DNA of 64,000 nucleotides, from assembly GCF_006345805.1 (NCBI RefSeq), contig NC_043009.1:51274001-51338000 (forward strand). The letters are read 5' to 3'. This document shows, piece by piece, positions 8,409 to 50,540 of the stretch. The notes beneath the pieces are model-generated. The model made no database searches. It was not told the origin of the DNA and saw nothing but the letters and a program-made list of their open reading frames with translations. The stretch is from Octopus sinensis. Taxonomy: Eukaryota. The stretch's first letter is position 1. Every line of letters begins with the position of its first letter. A program made the position numbers and the translations under genes.

Positions 8409-9022
8409 TATGCCTGTATATAAATGTCAGACCACTTTGTGTTATTGGTAAAATATAACTCAGTACAACCTGTTGCATGGTCAGACCAGCAGCGATTAAA
8501 CTGGAAATATTTCCAAGATAGCACGTTACATAGGATTGTTTCCATGGAAAGCCTGGAGGGCGAAAAGCAAAAGCCATAGATCAGGTGATCTAAAAGAGTT
8601 AGTGCCCATACAGCAGCTGAGAGTCTGAGAAACCACGCTTTTACTTAGGCATTCATTTATCAGAAGGGAAAATTAAGGTGACAGACTTACGAAAACGTTT
8701 GTATTCAATGGCCTTTGACTCATTCTTCTGTTTCGAGGAAATACATACGTTGCGCAGTGTGGGGGTGGTATTGCCAAAGGCATTTTCACATCTTATAAAG
8801 CTTCAGGTACAGGTAATGCTTGGCTAACACTTCTATTGTGTGTTGTATTATATGTCCTACCGCGAGCATAAAAGGGAAAGATTTTCAAGGAAAATTCCTT
8901 CCTTGGAAAGAAGGCCAGTGTCATCGTTGGAAGTAAGTTCCCTGAAGACGTAATGCGAGAAGCGCCCCTTTATTCCACATCATCGCTGCTCTAAGAAAAA
9001 GCATTTTTCGAAATCTTAACTC

Positions 9023-9024
9023 GT

Positions 9025-9055
<31 letters not shown>

Positions 9056-10306
9056 CGTGTGTGTGCGTGTGTGTATGCGTATGTGTATGCTTGTATGTCG
9101 GTATGGTGGGACAGAAGGCTTAAAGAACGCCTAACACAGAACTCCATACTCGTAAACATGTACTCTCGCTATGTTGATGATATCAACATAGTAGTAAAGG
9201 CACCCCCACAAGAGAGTACTGTTGATATAGTAATAGAAACTAATACTATGGAGGGCATCCAGCAAATAGCTAACTCCATCTACCAGAGTATTAAGGTCAC
9301 AATAGACTACCCAACTAAACACCCCAACCATAGACTACCAGTACTAGACACAGAACTCTGGCTAGAAACTGTGAATAATAAAACCCAAATCCTTCATTCG
9401 TACTATGCCAAACCTATGGCCTCAAAATACTTGATCCACCGGAACTCAGCCATTGCGGACAATGCCAAATTCAATATCTTGATGGTAGACCTCGTCAGAA
9501 TAATGAGAAATGTGTCACGCATGTGCGAGCCTACAGAGTTAAAGAGACACATACAATATTTCATTCACCGCATGCAGTTGTCAGGTTACAGCCATAAAGA
9601 AAGGATCAGAGTATACAAAGGAGTCATGAAGAAATTTGATAATATATTATGTAATGATAGGAATGGGATTTGCCCACTTTATAGGAACAAGTCATGGAAC
9701 ACTATAGAAAGGACAAAAAAGAAAATAGGGAAGGCCAACTCTTGGTATGATAGCCATAAATACCAGAGTGTCATGTTCGTTGACACCACCCCTGGAGGTG
9801 ACCTGGCGTACCGCTTTAGAAGGACCCTAGACAAATTTAAGCTAAGGATTAAGGTTGTTGAAAAGCCAGGCAACCCTATCAAATCTATAATCAGTAGAAC
9901 CTACCCTTTTAGTAGAACCCCCTGTACGGATAAGTACTGTACTGTATGTAGATTTATCCCACAAACAAACTGTAAAGCCAGAAATGTTATCTATAGTATA
10001 AGATGTATAGAAGGACGATGCAGTAACAAGACAACGACATACGTAGGGGAAACGGCAAGAAGCTTTGGAGAGCGGGTAAATGACCATTGGAGAGGACTTA
10101 AGGAAGGTAAAAGCTCATCGATTCTGTACCAACACGCCGAACAGGAACACAGGGGATCAATCAACAACATAGAAATTAAAATATTGTCCACGCATAGAAC
10201 AGATGCAACAATCAGACAAATTACAGAAGCTACACACATAATAGAAGATAAACCTAGCCTGAATAGGAAACTGGAATGGAACACTAGCACACACCACAAC
10301 ATATGA
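9023..10306 (+). mobile_element. Penelope-like retroelement ORF, 5'-truncated: C-terminal reverse transcriptase plus GIY-YIG endonuclease
   Basis: YSRYVDD catalytic motif, LPVLDTEL thumb region, Cys linker CTDKYCTVC, VIYSIRC...YVGETAR...ERVNDH GIY-YIG, terminal KPSLN; element sequence starts ~9100 directly after a (TG)n tract, so the listed N-terminus is microsatellite. Confidence 0.92.
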
Positions 10307-20634: not shown

Positions 20635-22233
<1,599 letters not shown>

Positions 22234-24931: not shown

Positions 24932-26373
24932 CCTTAAATCCTTTAAAATGTTTTAGCCCGAAGGCCACGGCCATGCTGGGGCACCACCGCTGAATGAGCT
25001 ACACTAATATGCGAATCCACCTCTGATACGTGGCACTTGGTCAACAAGGGAGTTCAATGCCGCTGCCCGCATCTGTGTCTCCTGTCCGACAAAAAGAGAT
25101 CCAGTTTAGTTTTAAAGAAACCCACATCCACACCATGCAAGTCTCTCAGGCATTTAGGGAGGATGTTAAAGAGCTGTGGTCCTCTGAAACCCAAGCTGCT
25201 GCAGTATCTGGTCCTGTATTTTGATGGTGATGCTGGAATCTTTGACACCATGCAGTGGCGCCCCGTTCTGCGGTTGGGGTAACTTTGAATGCCAAAGTTT
25301 GGGACAAGACCCTCCAGGATTTTACGGATGTATATCACCGCATATCTCTCCCGCCTTCGCTATAGGGAGAAGAGTTTTAATACTTTCAGACTTTCCCAGT
25401 AGCTGATATGTTGCATTGAGACGATATTCTTTGTGTAGCTTCTTTGAATTGCTTCGAGTTCTGCTGTTAGTTTTATATTGTGTGGTGACCATAGTTTGGA
25501 GCAGTAGTCCAAGCGGCTGAGGACGAAAGTTTTCCACAGGACCATCCATCAATGTCTCCTCTCTTGTTCTGAAAGTTCGGAGAATCCATCTAGCTAGCCA
25601 TCTGCATTTTATCACCAGATTAGTAATATGCACTTGGAAAGATGCATCATTGCTCATGTCAATGCCCAGGTCACGCACTGATTTTGACTCAGGGATTGCA
25701 ATTCTTCCCGGGCAGTGTATCCAGTCTGCATGTCGTTTACCTTTGTGTGCCGGTAGCGCAGGGCCTGGAACTTACCTGTGCTAAACTGCATGTTGTTGTC
25801 CTCAGCCCACATGTATATTGTATCCAATTCCTGTTGCAGATGTGCAATATTTCCAGGGTTTTGTATTGTGTGGAAGACTTTTGTGTCATCTGCATAGCTA
25901 GCAAGGGTGGCCATCTTAGCAACTGAGGGCATGTCTGAAAGGGCCACTATGAACAGCAGTGGCCTCAAGACAGTGCCCTATGGAATACCGCTTGTTATTT
26001 GTGTTTCCTTGGAGGTGGCTCCATTGGTCACAACTGCCTGCCTTCTATCTTTTAGGAAGTTGTGCAGCCACTCTCCAAGTTTTCCGCCTATGCCGAGACC
26101 ACGCAGTTCGTGGTCGACTTTATCAAAGGCCTTTGCAAAGTCGAGATATATCACATCCACATTTGAGCCATTTAGTAGCTGTTTTAATACCCAGTCATAG
26201 TGTTGCAGGAGCTGTGTTAGGCAGCCTCTACCTGGTCGAAATCCATGCTGGGTGTCAGTCAGCAAGTCATTTTCTTCAAGGAACATGATTAGTTTCTTGC
26301 GGACTATTCGTTCCATGACTTTGCTGATATGTGAGGTCAGATAGATAGGCCTATAATTTTTAGCATCTGCTCT
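24930..26373 (-). mobile_element. CR1-group LINE, 5'-truncated, frameshifted RT
   Basis: QHGFRPGR, YLDFAKAFDKVDH, YADDTK, RDLG, RLDYCSKLWSPH, LEAIQR motifs across ORFs 25978-26316, 25654-25968, 25360-25545. Confidence 0.92.
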
Positions 26374-26389
26374 ATATATATATGTATAT

Positions 26390-26970
26390 GTCGTCTGGAC
26401 TACTGTTTCCAGTTATGGACACCACATTGTGCCAAACTAACAGCGACGCTTGAAGCAGTCCAACGCCACTACACTAAAAAGTTTGAAACAGCTGCATGGA
26501 GTGGTTGAGAAAACTACAACTTTACTCCCTGGAGCAAAGGCGCGACAGATATGCAATAACCTACATATGGAAAACTCTTGAATGGCTAGTACCTAATTTC
26601 GGCATTCAGTGTTATTCAAATACTAGAGATGGCCGCCCCATCCACTCTATCTAGATTCAAGGTCAGGTGCTGCAATAATCTAGGGTTCAAAGACTCACAG
26701 CTCTTCAATGACCTTCTACAAAAACTAAGAAATCAGCATAAAGTGAAAGTAGATATCTTCAAAACGGCACTAGACATCCTCCTCTCCACAATACGGGATG
26801 AATCAACAGCTCAGCATAAGATGCAGACGAGGGCAGCGGAATAATTAGGGAGTTCCCTTATGCAACAAATAGACCAACAGCAGTGACAAAGGCACATGCA
26901 AGAGTGGGGATGTCAAACACCTCAGAATGAGAAAATCAGGAAGACCACGGTGTTGCTCCAGCATGACCGC
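26390..26970 (+). mobile_element. Older CR1-group LINE 3' fragment, opposite orientation
   Basis: RLDYCFQLWTPH..., LGFKDSQLFNDL..., FKTALD homologous to the adjacent minus-strand copy but diverged. Confidence 0.75.
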
Positions 26971-27468: not shown

Positions 27469-28433
27469 ATATATATACATGTATAGCGATTGATAGATCG
27501 GCAGACAAATATATACATGCATACAAAGTTAAATGTCGCCGTTCCAAACATCTCAGGGTATCCAAGGAATTTTTTTAGACGATTGTGATTACAGCACTTA
27601 ACCCCTGAAAGAGTTCGCCCGTCCGCAAGAGAGGTAACATTCAACTGCAAATAACATTCATTTTCGACGAAGAATTTTCGTGAAACAATGAACCATTTTC
27701 ACGGAATCAACACGATGCCGCTCATTAAGGAAATTGAACCCAACATATATACATATATATATACACATATATACATATATACATATATACACATATATAC
27801 ATACATAAATATATATATATATATATATCTATATATACATATATAGATATACATATATGTATATATACACATATATACATATACATGCATACATAAATAC
27901 ACACATGTATGTATCAGCAAGCACGCATACACACACACATTCTCTCTCTCTCTCTCTCTCTCATATACTCACATGCAATTCTTATTTTATTATTTTTGGT
28001 GTTTTTATCTCGATTTGCATAATGGCGTCAAAATTGTTGTTAGTTCATTTGAACACAGGTCCTCTAAGCAAACAGGGTGACGACTCGACGAGAATCTTTT
28101 GTAATGTGAATCTTTGAACACAAGAATTGGTTCCTGAAGTAGTAAAACTATGGACACTTATATTAATTAATTTCTATCTTTATTTAATTCCAGACTATAT
28201 GAAGTTGTTTGATATTTATATTAGGAAATGACAAGTATATGTATGTGTGGGGTGTATTTGTGTGTGTTTATGTATATATATATATGTATATATATATTAT
28301 ATATATAAATATATATGTATGTATGTATATATGTATTCATCTGACTGTTCTTTGTTTTGTTTTCCTGGTTCATTTTCGCTGCGTCTATCTCCTCCAACCT
28401 CTCCCTCTGTCCAACAATTATATATATATTATA

Positions 28434-28485
<52 letters not shown>

Positions 28486-28543
28486 ATATATATCTATATA
28501 TATATATTATATATATACACAATATATATAAATATATACATAC

Positions 28544-31500
28544 TCAAAGAGTGTGCCGCCAAAGATCAAAGCCGGTGCCGATTCAAACGGAACCAAACCG
28601 AACCAAACCGGTTCAAACCGGATCAATCCGGTTCAAAACTGATCATATCGGTTCAAACAAGATCAGAACGGTTCGAAGCGGATCAAACCAATTAAAACCG
28701 GTTCAAACCGGTTCAAACGTGATCAGACCGGATCAAACCGGATCAAGCCTGATCAAACCGGTTCAAATGTCAGGAATGTCCGGAATGTCAGAAACCTCAG
28801 GAATGACAGGATATCTGGAATGTCAGGAATGACTGGAATGTCAGGAATGACTGGAATGTCAGGAATGTCTGGAATGTCAGGAATGTCAGGAATATCAGGA
28901 ATGTCTGGAATGTCAGGAATGTCTGGAATGTCAGGAATGTCTGGAATGTCTGGAATGTCAGCGATCTCTGTCAGCACACTCTTTGATCTCAGTCGACAAG
29001 GATCAAAAACGGTGCCGACAGAGATCAAAGAGTGTGCCGACAGAGATCAAAGACGGTTGCCGACGAACCGGTTGAAACCGGATCAAACAGGCTGAGACCG
29101 GATCAAACCGGTCCAAACCAGATCAAACCGGTTCAAACCTGATCAAACCGGTTCAAACAGGATCAAACCGTATCAGACCGGTTCAAACTGGATCAAGCCT
29201 GATCAAACCGGTTCAAATGTCAGGAATGTCAGGTATGTCTGAAATGTCTAGAATGTCAGGAATGTCTGGAATGTCAGGAATGTCTGGAATGTCAGGAATG
29301 TCTGGAATGTCTGGAATGTCAGGAATGTCGGGAATGTCTGGAATGTCAGGAATGGCAGGAATGTCTGGAATGTCAGGAATGTTTGGAATGTCAGGAATGT
29401 CTGGAATATCAGGAATGTTTGAAATATGAGGAATATCAGAGATCAAAGACGATGCCGACAGAGATCAAAGAGTGTGCCGACAAAGATCAAAGAGTGTGCC
29501 GACAAAGACCAAAGACGGTGCCGACAGAGATAAAAGAGTGTGTCGACAAAGATCAAAGACGGTGCCGACATAGATCAAAGACGGTGCCGACAAACCAGTT
29601 CAAACCACATCAAACCGGATCAAACCGGTTCAAACCGGTTCAGACCGGTTCAATCCGGTTCAATCCCCTTCAAACCGGTTTAAATCGGTTCAAACCGGTT
29701 CAAACCGGTCCAAATACGGTACTGACAGAGATCAAAGGCGGTGCCGACAAATATCCAAGACGGGGCCGACAGAGATCAAAGAATGTGCCGACAAATATCC
29801 AAGACGGGGCCGACAGAGATCAAGAGTGTGCCGACAAAGATCAAAAACGGTGTCGACAAAGATCAAAGAGTGTGCCGACAAAGATCAAAGACGGTGCCGA
29901 CAGAGATCAAAGAGTGTGCCGACAAAGATCAAAGACGGTGCCGACAGAGATAAAAGAGTGTGTCGACAAAGATCAAAGACGATGCCGACAGAGATAAAAG
30001 AGTGTGTCGACAAAGATCAAAGACGGTGCCGACATAGATCAAAGACGGTGCCGACAAACCAGTTCAAACCACATCAAACCGGATCAAACCGGTTCAAACC
30101 GGTTCAGACCGGTTCAATCCGGTTCAATCCCCTTCAAACCGGTTTAAATCGGTTCAAACCGGTTCAAACCGGTCCAAATACGGTACTGACAGAGATCAAA
30201 GGCGGTGCCGACAAATATCCAAGACGGGGCCGACAGAGATCAAAGAGTATGCCAACAAAGATCAAAGACGGTGCCGACAGAGATCAAAGACGGTGCCGAC
30301 AGAGATCAAAGAGTGTGCCGACAAAGATCAAAAACGGTGTCGACAAAGATCAAAGACGGTGTCGACAGAGATCAAAGAATGTGCCGACAAATATCAATGA
30401 CGGTGCCGACAGAGATCAAAGAGTGTGCCAACAAAGATCAAAGACGGTGCCGAAAAACCGGTTCAAACCGGGTCAAATCGCATCAAATCAGTTTAAACCA
30501 GGTCAAACCGGTTTAAACCGGTTCAAACCGGTTCAATGCGGTTCAAACCGGTTCAATCAGGTTCAGACCGGTTCAATCCGGTTCAAACAGGTTCAATCCG
30601 GTTCAATCCGGTTCAAACCGGTTCAATCCGGTTCAATCCGGTTCAATCCGGTTCAATCCGTTCCAAACCGGTCAAGATACGGTGCCGTCAGAGATCAAAG
30701 AATGTGCCGACAAAGATCAAAGACGGTGCCGACAGAGATCAAAGGCGGTGCCGACAGAGATCAAAGGCGGTGTCGGCAGAGATCAAAGACGGTGCCGACA
30801 GAGATCAAAGACGGTGCCGACAAAGATCAAAGGCGGTGCCGACAGAGATCAAAGACGGTGCCGACAGATATCAAAGGGTGTCCCGACAGAGATCAAAGAC
30901 GGTGCCGACAGAGATCAAAGACGGTGCCGACAAAGATCAAAGAATGTGCCGACAAAGATCAAAGACGGTGCCGACAGAGATCAAATACGGTGCCGACAGA
31001 GATCAAAGACGGTGCCGACAGAGATCAAATACGGTGCCGACAGAGATCAAAGACGGTGCCGACAGAGATCAAATACGGTGCCGACAGATATCAAAAGGTG
31101 TGCCGATAGAGATCAAAGACGGTGCCGACAGAGATCAAATACGGTGCCGACAAAGATCAAAGGCGGTGCCGACAAAGATCAAAGGCGGTGCCGACAAAGA
31201 TCAAAGGCGGTGCCGGCAGAGATCAAAGAATGTGCCGACAAAGATCAAAGACGGTGCCGACAGAGATCAAAGACGGTGCCGACCGATATCAAATACGGTG
31301 CCGACCGATATCAAAAGGTGTGCCGACAGAGATCAAAGACGGTGCCGACAGAGATCAAAGGCGGTGCCGACAGAGATCAAAGACGGTGCCGACAGAGATC
31401 AAATACGGTGCCGACAAAGATCAAATGCGGTGCCGACAGAGATCAAAGAATGTGTCGACAAAGATCAAAGTCGGTGCCGACAGAGATCAAATACGGTGCC

Positions 31501-31583
31501 GACAAAGATCAGAGGCGGTGCCGACAGAGATCAAAGACGGTGCCGACAGAGATCAAAGTCGGTGCCGACAGAGATCAAAGAGT
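28544..31583. repeat. Composite satellite of 22-bp (GGTGCCGACAGAGATCAAAGAC), 10-bp (AAACCGGTTC/AAACCGGATC) and 9-bp (GGAATGTCA/GGAATGTCT) blocks
   Basis: Approximate blocks: 22:28544-28581, 10:28582-28766, 9:28767-28960, 22:28963-29064 (first part inverted), 10:29065-29216, 9:29217-29438, 22:29439-29590, 10:29591-29712, 22:29713-30054, 10:30055-30176, 22:30177-30453, 10:30454-30672, 22:30673-31583. Confidence 0.97.
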
Positions 31584-32578: not shown

Positions 32579-33769
32579 CAGGGTGCTTATATGATAACAG
32601 ATAGCTTTATTTTTCAAAAATGCAATGAGGATAAACATTAACCCCCTTTTTTTTGATAATGTTATTCAATAAATCCAACTTCAGCTTCAACAACTGCTTC
32701 TATATGAGATTTAAATCATCTACATGCTCAAATCAAGTGGTCCAGGTTCATTTTCGACATTACACTGACTATGGCGGCTTTCAAAGAAACTTTGGTGTTA
32801 TAGGCGTGTTCATTGACCTCTCTCTTAATATCTCTCCATATGTAATAGTCCAATGGATTAAGATCTGGGGAATTAAGAAGTCAAATGTTAGGGTTTATGT
32901 GATCATGAAAATGTTCAACCATCCATTCCTTTGTTACTAGAGCCATGTGTGATAGTGCAGAGTCTTACTGAAAAACATATGGCCTTCCATTGCAGACACT
33001 GTCTATCCAGGGCTTAACAATTATTTCCGGGACCTCAATGTAGGCAGCAGAGTTAACGCTAAGGCCTTGTGGAAAGAAGTAAGGAGGCATCACATGTCTT
33101 TCATTGCTGACAACCCCTAAAACCATGACAGTTGTAGGAAATTTTGTATCTTGGAACTTCAGAAAGGTCTGCATATAACCGTCTATCACTTCTTCTGTTA
33201 ACCTTTTGATCTTGGTCGAAGTTTTTCTCGTTTGAGAACACCAAATTAAATCTTCTTCTGCTGGATCTTTCAGTTTAAGAGCCTTTTAGATCTGATGTAG
33301 TGATTTTCTTTCACTTTTTCGGACAAATTGACCTTTCCTCATCATATAAGACATATCTGATGTCTTTGTGGACAACATTTCTGACTATTCCTTCTGACAC
33401 ATGGAGATCTTTTGCAACTGACCTCATGGACATTCTTGGATTGTAATCAATGGTCTGTTGAACTTACTGGATAAATTCGTGTGTTCTGAAGATTTCAGAT
33501 TTAGAATGCGTTGATACTGGTGATAGGTTTCTCTCAGCTTCCAGCTCCTTTCAAACTTTGTAGACGAAAGATCTGGCAATTTTTAAAACTCGATATATTT
33601 CTAAATATTCACTATGCTCAGCCTTTATAACCACAATAACAGTATGCTTCTTCATTTCTTGAGAAAGCTGAGGGTTTGCCATTATTATTTTCTGAAACAA
33701 AAATTATAGAGTTAGCAGAAAATGCAGCATGACCCAAAATTTTATCTCCAATACCTTGCGCACCCTGTA
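32577..33769 (-). mobile_element. Decayed Tc1/mariner-superfamily transposon
   Basis: Ends TA-CAGGGTGC ... GCACCCTG-TA; minus-strand TKFPTTVMVLGVVS...YVFQ followed by a QDSA-like second Asp motif. Confidence 0.8.
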
Positions 33770-33848
33770 TATATATATATAATATATTATATATATATAT
33801 ATTTATATGTATATATATATAATATTATGTAATATATATTATATATAT

Positions 33849-33879
<31 letters not shown>

Positions 33880-34127
33880 TGTATATATATATATAATATA
33901 TATAATATATGTATATATATAATATATATATATCTATATATCCGTAATAATGAAGGGTGAAATTAATTAATTGGAATAATTATCAATTACACCAAGTAGT
34001 CTTCGGCATGTAAAAGCCTCATTCGAGGAAAATTTAGCAGAAAATGCAGCAATGACCCAAAATTTTATCTCCAAGTACCTTGCGCACCCTGTATATATAT
34101 ATATATATATATATATATCATATATAT

Positions 34128-34182
<55 letters not shown>

Positions 34183-34207
34183 TTATATGATATATATATA
34201 TATAATA

Positions 34208-34252
<45 letters not shown>

Positions 34253-34483
34253 ATATATTATATATATATATGTATATATATATTATATATATTATATATC
34301 CGTAATAATGAAGGGTGAAATTAATTAATTTGGAAAATTATCAATTACACCAAGTAGTCTTCGGCATGTAAAAGCCTCATTCGAGGAAAATTTAAGTAAT
34401 ACTAAGCAATAAAGGGTTTATTCTAAATTCGGTCTGTGGTAAGGCAATTCGTTGCTAAACCCTTTATTGCTTAGTATTACTTA

Positions 34484-34544
<61 letters not shown>

Positions 34545-35377
34545 GTATGTATGTATATGTGAATCCGGTGGACTCTGAACATTAATCTGTCTGAGCCTTC
34601 GTTTCTGAATAAAATATGTTCGACCTCGATTTATTTTATGCCACGTGATCGGAGACATTACACGCGGCTTTATTGGCGTCATATGCTTTCAGCAGATCAG
34701 GCTATACATAGATCAGGCTATACATATTTCTTTATATCGAAAGTCAACCCGAGACGCATCTACATTGCTCAGTCGTTCCGATACACAAAGCTTTCCGCAT
34801 TCTTCTGAAGTGCGTTGTGACCACAACAGCAAGCTCAAGGATACTGGCTCATCCATGTGCCAGCAATTCGTATCAGATGTCACAATTGCAAACAGCACAA
34901 CAGCATGGTTTCTGTGTAATGCTGCTTTCCACCTTTAAACCTCTTCATTCATCTGTGCACATTGCACTTGTCAATATTGTCAGCTCTATAAACAAAGCGT
35001 TGCCTTCTCGAGATGTTGGAGCGAGTTTTCGCTTCCTTTGACCAAAACTAAACTGACAGCATGCTGCTTCTGTTCGGAAGGCACAATTTTCTTCCGAAAA
35101 GGAAGAAGAATTGTTACTATAAGTAGAAAGTATTACTTGACTATCGTGTGCAATTTATCATTACTAAAAGCACTGTGTCTGTTAATAAAATGGCTATGCT
35201 TGTTTTACAGCCTGCTTTATAGCTTGCTTTACTATTTGTACATATGTGTGAGTGTGCATTTGCGCGAGCGCATGCCTAATCACCATGATTGGGTTGGGTT
35301 TAGTGTGTGCGTGTATCTATTGCCAACAGTCTATCTCTCTCTCTGTCTGTCCGTCAGTCTGTCGGTATTTCTATCAA

Positions 35378-49719: not shown

Positions 49720-50040
49720 AGTGATGTGTTTGTTTCTACTGCATGAACTAAAAGTCAGAGGGGGACGGAATAAACTACGTGCATCAACTTGCTATAAAAG
49801 CGGGTAGTAATTTTACCTTGTACTTATTCTTAGTGCAAGTTTTGAAGAGTGCTGTTTTATTTTAGTATTTATTTTTTCAAGGCTATAATGAAAGTGAAAA
49901 AGGAGCATATTAGGCATATTTTGCTTAATGTGTTCAATAAAGGCAGCAACGCCAGGAATAATGCGAGGAATACTAATGCAGTATATAGGGATCGGACGAT
50001 AAGCGTAAACCAACCTCAGCTGTGGTTCCAGAAATTGCTG
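49720..50040 (+). mobile_element. 5' fragment of mariner family seen at 56492-57759
   Basis: MKVKKEHIRHILL..FNKGSNA..ARN.NAVY.D.TISV...Q.WFQK mariner HTH. Confidence 0.8.
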
Positions 50041-50044
50041 GTAT

Positions 50045-50540
50045 ATACATACATATACATACATACATACATACATACATACATGGTGGCTGCCCCCTCG
50101 TTATCGAGTATGGCCATTGCGCGAAGCTTAATCAATGTTGTAATCGTGCAATGCCTGTGCAAGAAAATATTTTTAAAGTGAGGAAAGGCTGTGCACTGAG
50201 TCAATGCCACTCACTAAGCAACAGCAGCCATAATCCGAAAAGAAGAACAACTCAACATCATCGGTAACCACTGAGCCGCAGGTTTTATGTCGGAGTTATC
50301 CCAGTTACCTGAGTTACCTTCTCCTAGAAGGATGCCCTAACCAAGGCCAGGAGTCCTTCACTCCCAATGGTTTAACCGCGCGATCGGGTATTCAGTCCGA
50401 TTATTTCTATTTCCCCGCGCATGATACAGCCTTAAGACATTTATTGGATGGCCGTTGACTCTCAAGAGTTCCTCCGCCCTTTGACGGGTTTTGTTTTTCA
50501 TCCCGCAGGGTGTCCAATAAACACCCTCCTCACCAAGTAT
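50045..50540 (-). mobile_element. Bipartite non-autonomous RTE derivative (5' UTR part fused to 3' tail) with (ATGT)n tail
   Basis: 50176-50540 matches 14620-14990; ~50093-50130 matches the RTE 3' end at ~51833-51870. Confidence 0.75.

Follow-up and report, generated by a model that had tools for sequence, protein, structure and literature searches.

A 3,040-bp tandem-repeat array was found at positions 28544-31583 (+ strand) of the window, by which we mean the whole 64,000-nucleotide stretch of Octopus sinensis DNA analysed here. It belongs to a dispersed family of mosaic satellites, and the Wnt site varies less than any other part of the repeat unit that contains it. This low variability suggests that the repeats are probably bound by factors, and it is likely, judging from the sites they spell, that Wnt, Hippo, and other signalling factors bind them. 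The explanation that we prefer, and to which we give about an even chance, is a satellite that would spread by templated repair and would be bound by factors (most clearly by TCF), the binding favouring both intact sites and the mixing of units.

Structure of the array in the window

The array was resolved into 79 units of 22 bp (A), 81 units of 10 bp (B; this count includes a single misfit of 11 bp at the left edge), 47 units of 9 bp (C), and one inverted A unit. These figures agree with those of an earlier note on this DNA, which had put the numbers at about 80, 80, and 45, and the block parse likewise bears out its description of three different units in alternating blocks, the order being A-B-C-(inverted A)-A-B-C-A-B-A-B-A-B-A. 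The B unit is AAACCGGTTC, the C unit is GGAATGTCA or GGAATGTCT, and an example of the A unit is AGATCAAAGACGGTGCCGACAG (30780-30801). The array begins and ends in mid-unit, and neither a terminal repeat nor a target-site duplication was seen. Its left flank is a (TA)n microsatellite (28419-28542, assigned to neither strand), which is target DNA outside the family.

From left to right on the + strand, a partial A block (28544-28581) is followed by a B block of about 18 units (28582-28765) and a C block of about 22 units (28766-28961), the junction between the latter two being common to other loci. An inverted A unit on the - strand (28962-28993) marks a strand switch, and beyond it lies a second A-B-C copy on the + strand (28994-29436), composed of A at 28994-29063, B at 29064-29215, and C at 29216-29436. 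The region 29437-30671 (+) consists of alternating A and B blocks: A at 29437-29590, B at 29591-29709, and A at 29710-30054 in its first half, and B at 30055-30173, A at 30174-30453, and B at 30454-30671 in its second half. The array is closed by a terminal A block of 41 units (30672-31582, +), in which the unit layout is the HMG site AGATCAAAG with the Helper core RCCG 4 bp on. A 233-bp segment occurs twice with 100% identity (29550-29782 and 30014-30246), and this perfect duplication points to later, recent growth of the array in place.

The motif names given in the earlier note (TCF/LEF, Grainyhead, and TEAD) are correct, with 56, 22, and 36 exact occurrences in the array, respectively. The HMG site AGATCAAAG is found 55 times in the forward and once in the reverse orientation, and once in the remaining 61 kb of the window; the Grainyhead octamer AACCGGTT is absent from the rest of the window and is perfect in only 22 of the 81 B units; GGAATG, counted on both strands, occurs 21 times elsewhere in the window. 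When the units were shuffled (20,000 tries), 0.06% of the A, 0.085% of the B, and 0.67% of the C shuffles contained their own motif, although these rates alone are an unfair test because the motifs had been picked after the units were seen. The array had also been called a GC- and CpG-rich island. It is indeed richer than its surroundings in both respects (GC, 48.6% versus 35.3% in the remainder of the window; CpG observed/expected, 1.16 versus 0.83), but its GC content is still below 50%. As a whole, the earlier description caught the units and the motifs but passed over the Helper site, the inverted A unit, the 233-bp duplication, and the remainder of the family.

Arrangement of the TCF and TEAD sites and variability of the motif positions

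The arrangement of the TCF and TEAD sites goes beyond what the earlier note had noticed. In the window, an RCCG Helper core is found 4-5 bp after the HMG site in 49 of 56 cases, which gives the two-part TCF site of an HMG site with a nearby Helper, RCCG being the short form of the Helper site that the C-clamp recognises (PMC4154663; PMC4267635). Of 4240 HMG-Helper pairs across the family, 3342 have a spacing of 4 and 744 a spacing of 5. The TEAD cores of the C units are 9 bp apart, with 23 such doubles in the window, a distance that also characterises the cooperative Tead double motif (PMC12008814).

The comparison of motif positions with the other unit positions, a check that the earlier note had proposed, came out in favour of the TCF unit, weakly in favour of the TEAD unit (position 9 only), and against the Grainyhead unit. 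Among 6,998 A units from 55 loci, constancy is 93-98% in the HMG site, 79-88% at the spacer positions 10-13, and 93-95% in the Helper CG. When positions were matched for base class, the HMG site was less variable than the rest of the unit in 49 of 55 loci for G/C and in 48 of 55 for A/T, and the Helper positions were so in 48 of 55, but these counts are non-independent and the sign tests overstate the evidence, since the loci are related and have variants in common by descent. At the first Helper base, the commonest change is one that preserves RCCG. In the 15 loci having both A and B, CpG transitions amount to 2-4% in the Helper versus 9% in the CpG of the B unit.

In the B unit, two critical bases were less variable in 16 of 17 loci than the central CG, which is the part of the Grainyhead site where changes are best tolerated (PMC13105062); CpG decay alone suffices to explain this difference. 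Compared with positions outside it, the B motif was no better kept (7 of 17 loci and 0 of 17), its A/T positions were more variable than the single outside position in 17 of 17 loci, and at position 8 T and A have similar frequencies. As for the C unit, position 9 alone is free and more variable, and the G/C positions showed no conservation gain (10 of 23 loci).

The dispersed family and the common ancestry of its units

The genome searched comprises 2.72 Gb in 13,516 contigs. With the last A block as the query, at least 221 matches were obtained on many chromosomes (40 of 152 candidates were scored), and about 39 loci were fetched from these matches. A 27-letter A pattern occurs exactly 785 times in the genome, 614 of them within the loci retrieved over the whole analysis, which contain 171 kb of A. 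Scaled from this value, the 22-mer totals about 0.2 Mb in the assembly, which is a lower bound because satellites collapse in assembly and variant units are missed. Before counting, C8469, C9506, L046, L061, and L103-L105 were dropped as likely duplicates (L061 proved to be a paralogue at 82%), and L106 was dropped because it has no array. The 59 arrays counted consist of 27 with A only, 13 with A, B, and C, 12 with A and C, 3 with A and B, 3 with B, and 1 with B and C; A or C lies on both strands in 27 of them. The 44 simple arrays measure 0.9-9.6 kb, with a median of 2.9 kb. These are the features of a dispersed satellite: tandem arrays occur at many loci on several chromosomes, are inserted into other satellites, and have junction types in common. 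Array words were also indexed in sequencing runs from five coded organisms; their share exceeded 0.2 in only three runs (two organisms) and was at most 0.2 in 17 of the 20 rows of runs containing array words. No RNA run appeared among the rows listed, which speaks neither for nor against expression.

At a locus on C17 (G000:C17:14.50 Mb), a repeat made of 88 bp of A, 100-170 bp of B, and 100-300 bp of C occurs about 12 times, and the two A-B-C copies of the window are 86-87% identical to this ~440-bp repeat (87% for the copy at 28994-29436). For each of three joint types one phase predominates, being seen in 62 of 87 A>B joints (12 loci), 35 of 48 B>C joints (10 loci), and 47 of 64 C>A joints (10 loci); other joints are more varied. 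One dominant phase for each joint indicates that A, B, and C are passed on together, new switches being occasional. Judged by these junctions, the three units are inherited as one block rather than assembled in the window by chance.

Partner units adjoining the arrays

The arrays adjoin other short units: a 13-mer with CTATAAATAG, an 18-mer with CTAAAAATAG, a 21-mer with ATGCAAAT, a second TEAD unit in the form of a 58/59-mer that carries two GGAATG in inverted orientation, and, beside the 58-mer, a 52-mer with TTCCCGGAA. We take CTATAAATAG and CTAAAAATAG to be MEF2 sites, ATGCAAAT is presumably a POU site, and TTCCCGGAA is presumably a STAT site. Mosaic blocks extend over about 58 kb on C9081, more than 60 kb on C13:56.60-56.66 Mb, and more than 39 kb on C14:52.285-52.324 Mb; these blocks and another at C8:96.64 Mb mix MEF2-, POU-, TEAD-, TCF-, and Grainyhead-like units, with inversions. 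Some 70 kb upstream of the window there is a 35.7-kb B-unit array (G000:C13:51168742-51204449; L097, L107-L109, L098), with C and A blocks in front of it. The 17 control stretches (170 kb) contained six short minisatellites and none of the mosaic units.

A match of at least 16 bits to the motif of a well-known factor was found in 6 of the 16 units, and 8 of the 16 match none of the six motifs considered. The look-elsewhere test was analytic and was based on six motifs of our own choice, among them standard consensus sites for MEF2, POU, and STAT. For 30, 100, 200, and 400 motif classes, it predicts 0.4, 1.2, 2.3, and 4.1 units with such a match, with P values for the enrichment of 7e-7, 5e-4, 0.015, and 0.19, respectively; if the two MEF2 units are counted as one, P is 0.058-0.39 for 200-400 classes. 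B has GATCAAA in common with A, and C has GGAATGT in common with the 58/59-mer, so the units are perhaps non-independent.

Conservation support is modest for the 18-mer MEF2 unit and was not found for the 13-mer MEF2 unit, whose least constant letters are C, T, and G (66-74%) and whose site is intact in 40-56% of the units; the 21-mer POU unit showed no conservation gain. For the STAT unit, a test set before 20 new loci were fetched failed, the core being less variable in 10 of 20 and 12 of 20 of them; post hoc, the free central base was seen to be among the most variable positions (52%). The 52-bp STAT-site satellite (L167-L186) is itself dispersed, occupies 0.5-4.9 kb per locus, and likewise inserts with free ends.

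Other partner units observed are a 34-mer (L067, L178, L179), a 26-mer (L047), and a 13-mer with GCCAA (L093). At L054, an 18-mer with TACGTG stands inverted on either side of the A array, and L087-L090 carry a 73-bp spacer with TGACGTAA. Separately, an HMG-box search of the genome gave several HMG-box genes with identical scores in 309- or 185-aa frames on unplaced contigs such as C12601, C10384, C9323, C9587, and C9748; identical scores in such long frames suggest an expanded intronless HMG-box family.

Insertion sites and mode of spread

The flanks differ between the loci, save for a few pairs that were duplicated together with their flank. L038 and L048 have about 300 bp of flank in common (87%), and L056 and L061 have 4.7 kb in common (82%), which indicates that arrays were also duplicated along with their surroundings. 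Among 44 arrays, 24 unit phases are found at the starts and 27 at the ends, and no shared terminus appears in the junction lists. No target-site duplication was detected: a direct repeat of at least 6 bp is present at 2 of 44 arrays versus 2.2% for the null of mismatched pairs, and one of the two (L032) sits in a dinucleotide repeat. Of 47 insertions tested for empty sites, nine had a paralogous site in the fetched DNA, and two of these were readable. The empty site of L062 is a short interspersed repeat that suffered almost no loss and whose letters match at both joints, while 117 bp were lost at the insertion of L059; for microhomology, one clean empty site and one with a deletion could be read among the 47. 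The copies have free ends and lie within interspersed repeats, other satellites, or microsatellites.

Several other modes of origin were considered and rejected or set aside. Targeting of microsatellites does not hold, as 8 of 44 arrays lie at microsatellites versus 18% locally. A telomere origin seems less likely, as the last 10 kb of C1 contains no A, B, or C block; degenerate CCCTAA tracts join three interior A arrays (oriented coordinates L034:8000-9800, L040:4198-4406, and L043:6500-7615). Conserved termini and target-site duplications, which would mark a transposon carrier, were not found. The suggestion in the earlier note of a mobile element holds as far as dispersal is concerned (at least 221 matches), but termini and a target-site duplication were not found, nor was a coding part in the window. 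A Penelope-mobilised retrozyme does not fit, given the absence of an Rfam match, the many end phases, and the 8 of 44 arrays at microsatellites. Rfam gave no match in the window, which also removes the structured-RNA reading, and one U6 match among 14 other loci. This U6 snRNA gene (L135:6004-6108, + strand) lies about 40 kb from the C9081 mosaic block. A protein-coding repeat was likewise rejected: neither 22 nor 10 is divisible by 3, and the Pfam hits are driven by the repeats only. One Pfam hit in the overlapping frames of the array exceeds the cut-off, and no stretch passes alone; the long open frames across the array result from stop-poor units. No host gene was found among the 13 ORFs scanned in the window.

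The window also holds a Penelope-like element with a 428-aa open frame (9020-10306, +), whose weak GIY-YIG match is below the cut-off, a broken LINE reverse transcriptase in two frames (25654-26412, -), a remnant of a mariner transposase HTH (49846-50181, +), and two long TA tracts (20798-21991, 1.2 kb; 33768-34558, 0.8 kb with a 358-bp period).

Comparison with known systems

Human Satellite 3 (HSat3), which is bound by TEAD/YAP, is likewise a tandem satellite whose sequence contains GGAATG along with motifs of other factors. By itself it shows enrichment for 42 of 828 JASPAR motifs, and it has been proposed as a platform for a growth pathway (bioRxiv 10.1101/2024.10.22.616524). It is a pentamer in megabase blocks near the rDNA, and its binding has been shown (same source), whereas the octopus family has 9-59-bp units with a different site in each, forms mosaics and scattered kb-sized copies, and is a putative binding platform. 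The octopus units resemble HSat3 in spelling a factor motif at high density. Megabase arrays with a large share of the genomic sites were not found, the 22-mer amounting to at least about 0.2 Mb in the assembly, and no rRNA match was present in the window or the 14 loci scanned.

The MORC3-restricted tandem-repeat enhancers (such as IFNB1-MRE) likewise carry dozens of homotypic sites in kb-sized, slippage-amplified repeats (PMC13373173). They are single-locus, one-factor repeats with little mutual sequence likeness and a known target gene, in contrast to the octopus family, which is one dispersed family combining the units of several factors. Zebrafish MOSAT_DR is likewise a dispersed mosaic satellite, located in introns and intergenic DNA (PMC7736785). 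It is CG-poor and carries H3K9me3 and non-CG methylation (PMC7736785), and its likeness to the octopus family is one of description only; its silencing marks indicate that such repeats can be silent.

Scattered arrays with common junction types, insertion into satellites, microhomology, and a proposed spread by repair or circles are described for the euchromatic satellites Rsp-like/1.688 of Drosophila (PMC7403614) and Cast1-9 of Tribolium (10.1101/2023.04.24.538079). The spread of Rsp-like is attributed to microhomology-mediated repair and circles (PMC7403614). The portions of these two sources that were consulted report no multimerised signalling-factor sites; circles were shown there and are hypothetical for the octopus arrays (PMC7403614; 10.1101/2023.04.24.538079). 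The octopus arrays follow the insertion pattern of Rsp-like, and by this analogy the same repair or circle mechanism may operate here.

Set beside the TCF/Pangolin pairs, RCCG lies 4 bp from the HMG site in what is apparently the Akimbo layout, as inferred from the text of that paper, and directly adjoins the following HMG site of the array (0 bp), as in the Knock-knee layout (PMC4154663). The A-unit Helper fits 6 of 7 letters of GCCGCCR, and its spacing of 4 compares with a fly optimum of 6 and falls inside the human range of 2-9 (PMC4154663). The Tead double motif has TEAD cores at a period of 9, like the C unit (PMC12008814). In these sources, TCF/Pangolin pairs and Tead doubles are single enhancer sites or synthetic reporters (PMC4154663; PMC12008814).

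The earlier note knew of no such element. In the literature covered, which took in few subscription journals and no supplements, no report of a dispersed mosaic with separate units for several signalling pathways was found, nor any account of such an octopus satellite, whose units could be contained in the repeat libraries supplementing genome papers. Factor-bound satellites are known (HSat3-TEAD and the MORC3-restricted repeats) and give the idea a precedent. Factor-bound, scattered, and mosaic satellites and tandem-repeat enhancers are all already known; the octopus array is real, and the function of its motifs is putative.

Possible explanations of the family

The preferred explanation, a factor-bound satellite spreading by repair, would start from one ancestral ~440-bp A-B-C repeat. 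The array would likely be a copy of another array, inserted at a DNA break, new copies arising by microhomology-primed, template-switching repair or from re-inserted circles, and its blocks would afterwards expand and contract through slippage and unequal exchange. Binding by factors, chiefly TCF, would take place in dividing cells or in the germ line, and this is probably why the motifs are kept intact. Bound arrays would remain open, come together in the nucleus, and be used more often as templates; such frequent use would favour intact sites and join different units into mosaics, with local and incidental effects on host genes. A bolder version, which seems to us possible but doubtful, is a self-spreading library of multimerised sites for Wnt (TCF plus Helper), Hippo (TEAD doubles), JAK/STAT, MEF2, POU, and Grainyhead, free of transposase and termini, in which binding would drive both the copying and the mixing of the arrays and every new insertion would be a ready-made, signal-responsive enhancer.

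The two-part TCF grammar, the low CpG decay in the Helper, and the TEAD period speak against a neutral dispersed satellite, in which the motif likeness would be chance plus pattern-seeking and the variation would reflect a few old amplified variants; so do the long matches of six units to sites of well-known factors (P = 7e-7 at 30 and 5e-4 at 100 classes). Such a satellite, which we think unlikely, nevertheless accords with the failed conservation tests of the B, POU, and STAT units, with the 8 of 16 units matching no chosen motif and the P of 0.19 at 400 classes, and with the A/B and C/58-59-mer overlaps, by which the units are perhaps non-independent; spread by microhomology, moreover, requires no function (PMC7403614).

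Selection by the host, acting on signal-responsive enhancers of nearby genes or on HSat3-like factor stores, is also rather improbable. The density is reporter-like (56 HMG sites and 23 TEAD doubles in 3 kb), mammalian tandem-repeat enhancers with 45-61 sites exist (PMC13373173), mosaic blocks are from 39 to over 60 kb long, with the 35.7-kb B block about 70 kb upstream of the window, and the true repeat amount may exceed that of the assembly. However, the copies lie free-ended in interspersed repeats, other satellites, and microsatellites, the 13 window ORFs include no host gene, the window and 14 loci gave no rRNA match, and about 10,000 TCF units in the assembly face about 600,000 ATCAAAG sites expected by chance (a manual estimate for 35% GC). 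The factor sink proposed in the earlier note is doubtful in this assembly, because the TCF units are few against the chance 7-mer sites, while HSat3 holds 72% of human TEAD cores (bioRxiv 10.1101/2024.10.22.616524). The super-enhancer suggested in that note is a hypothetical role. That a mobile element (foldback, a Helitron or MITE carrier, or LINE/Penelope retroposition) has the arrays as its internal repeats or tails, with the motifs as its own enhancer, appears very unlikely: shared termini were not found in the junction lists, nor were target-site duplications, 24 start and 27 end phases occur in 44 arrays, microsatellites are not targeted (8 of 44 versus 18%), and Rfam gave no match. The points in its favour are the common inversions (27 of 59 arrays), the Penelope-like and LINE remnants in the window, and the arrays that moved with their flank (L038/L048, about 300 bp; L056/L061, 4.7 kb, 82%).

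If the repeats are unbound, the family is an ordinary scattered satellite and a caution on motif matches in short repeats. If they are bound, the octopus genome would hold natural multimer reporters at dozens of loci, and both the selection of a satellite for factor binding and an enzyme-free spread of repeats aided by binding would become testable questions; since motif and spacer positions lie adjacent in thousands of copies, the unit supplies its own built-in control. Bound arrays would also offer a route to the rapid rewiring of cephalopod growth and regeneration genes.
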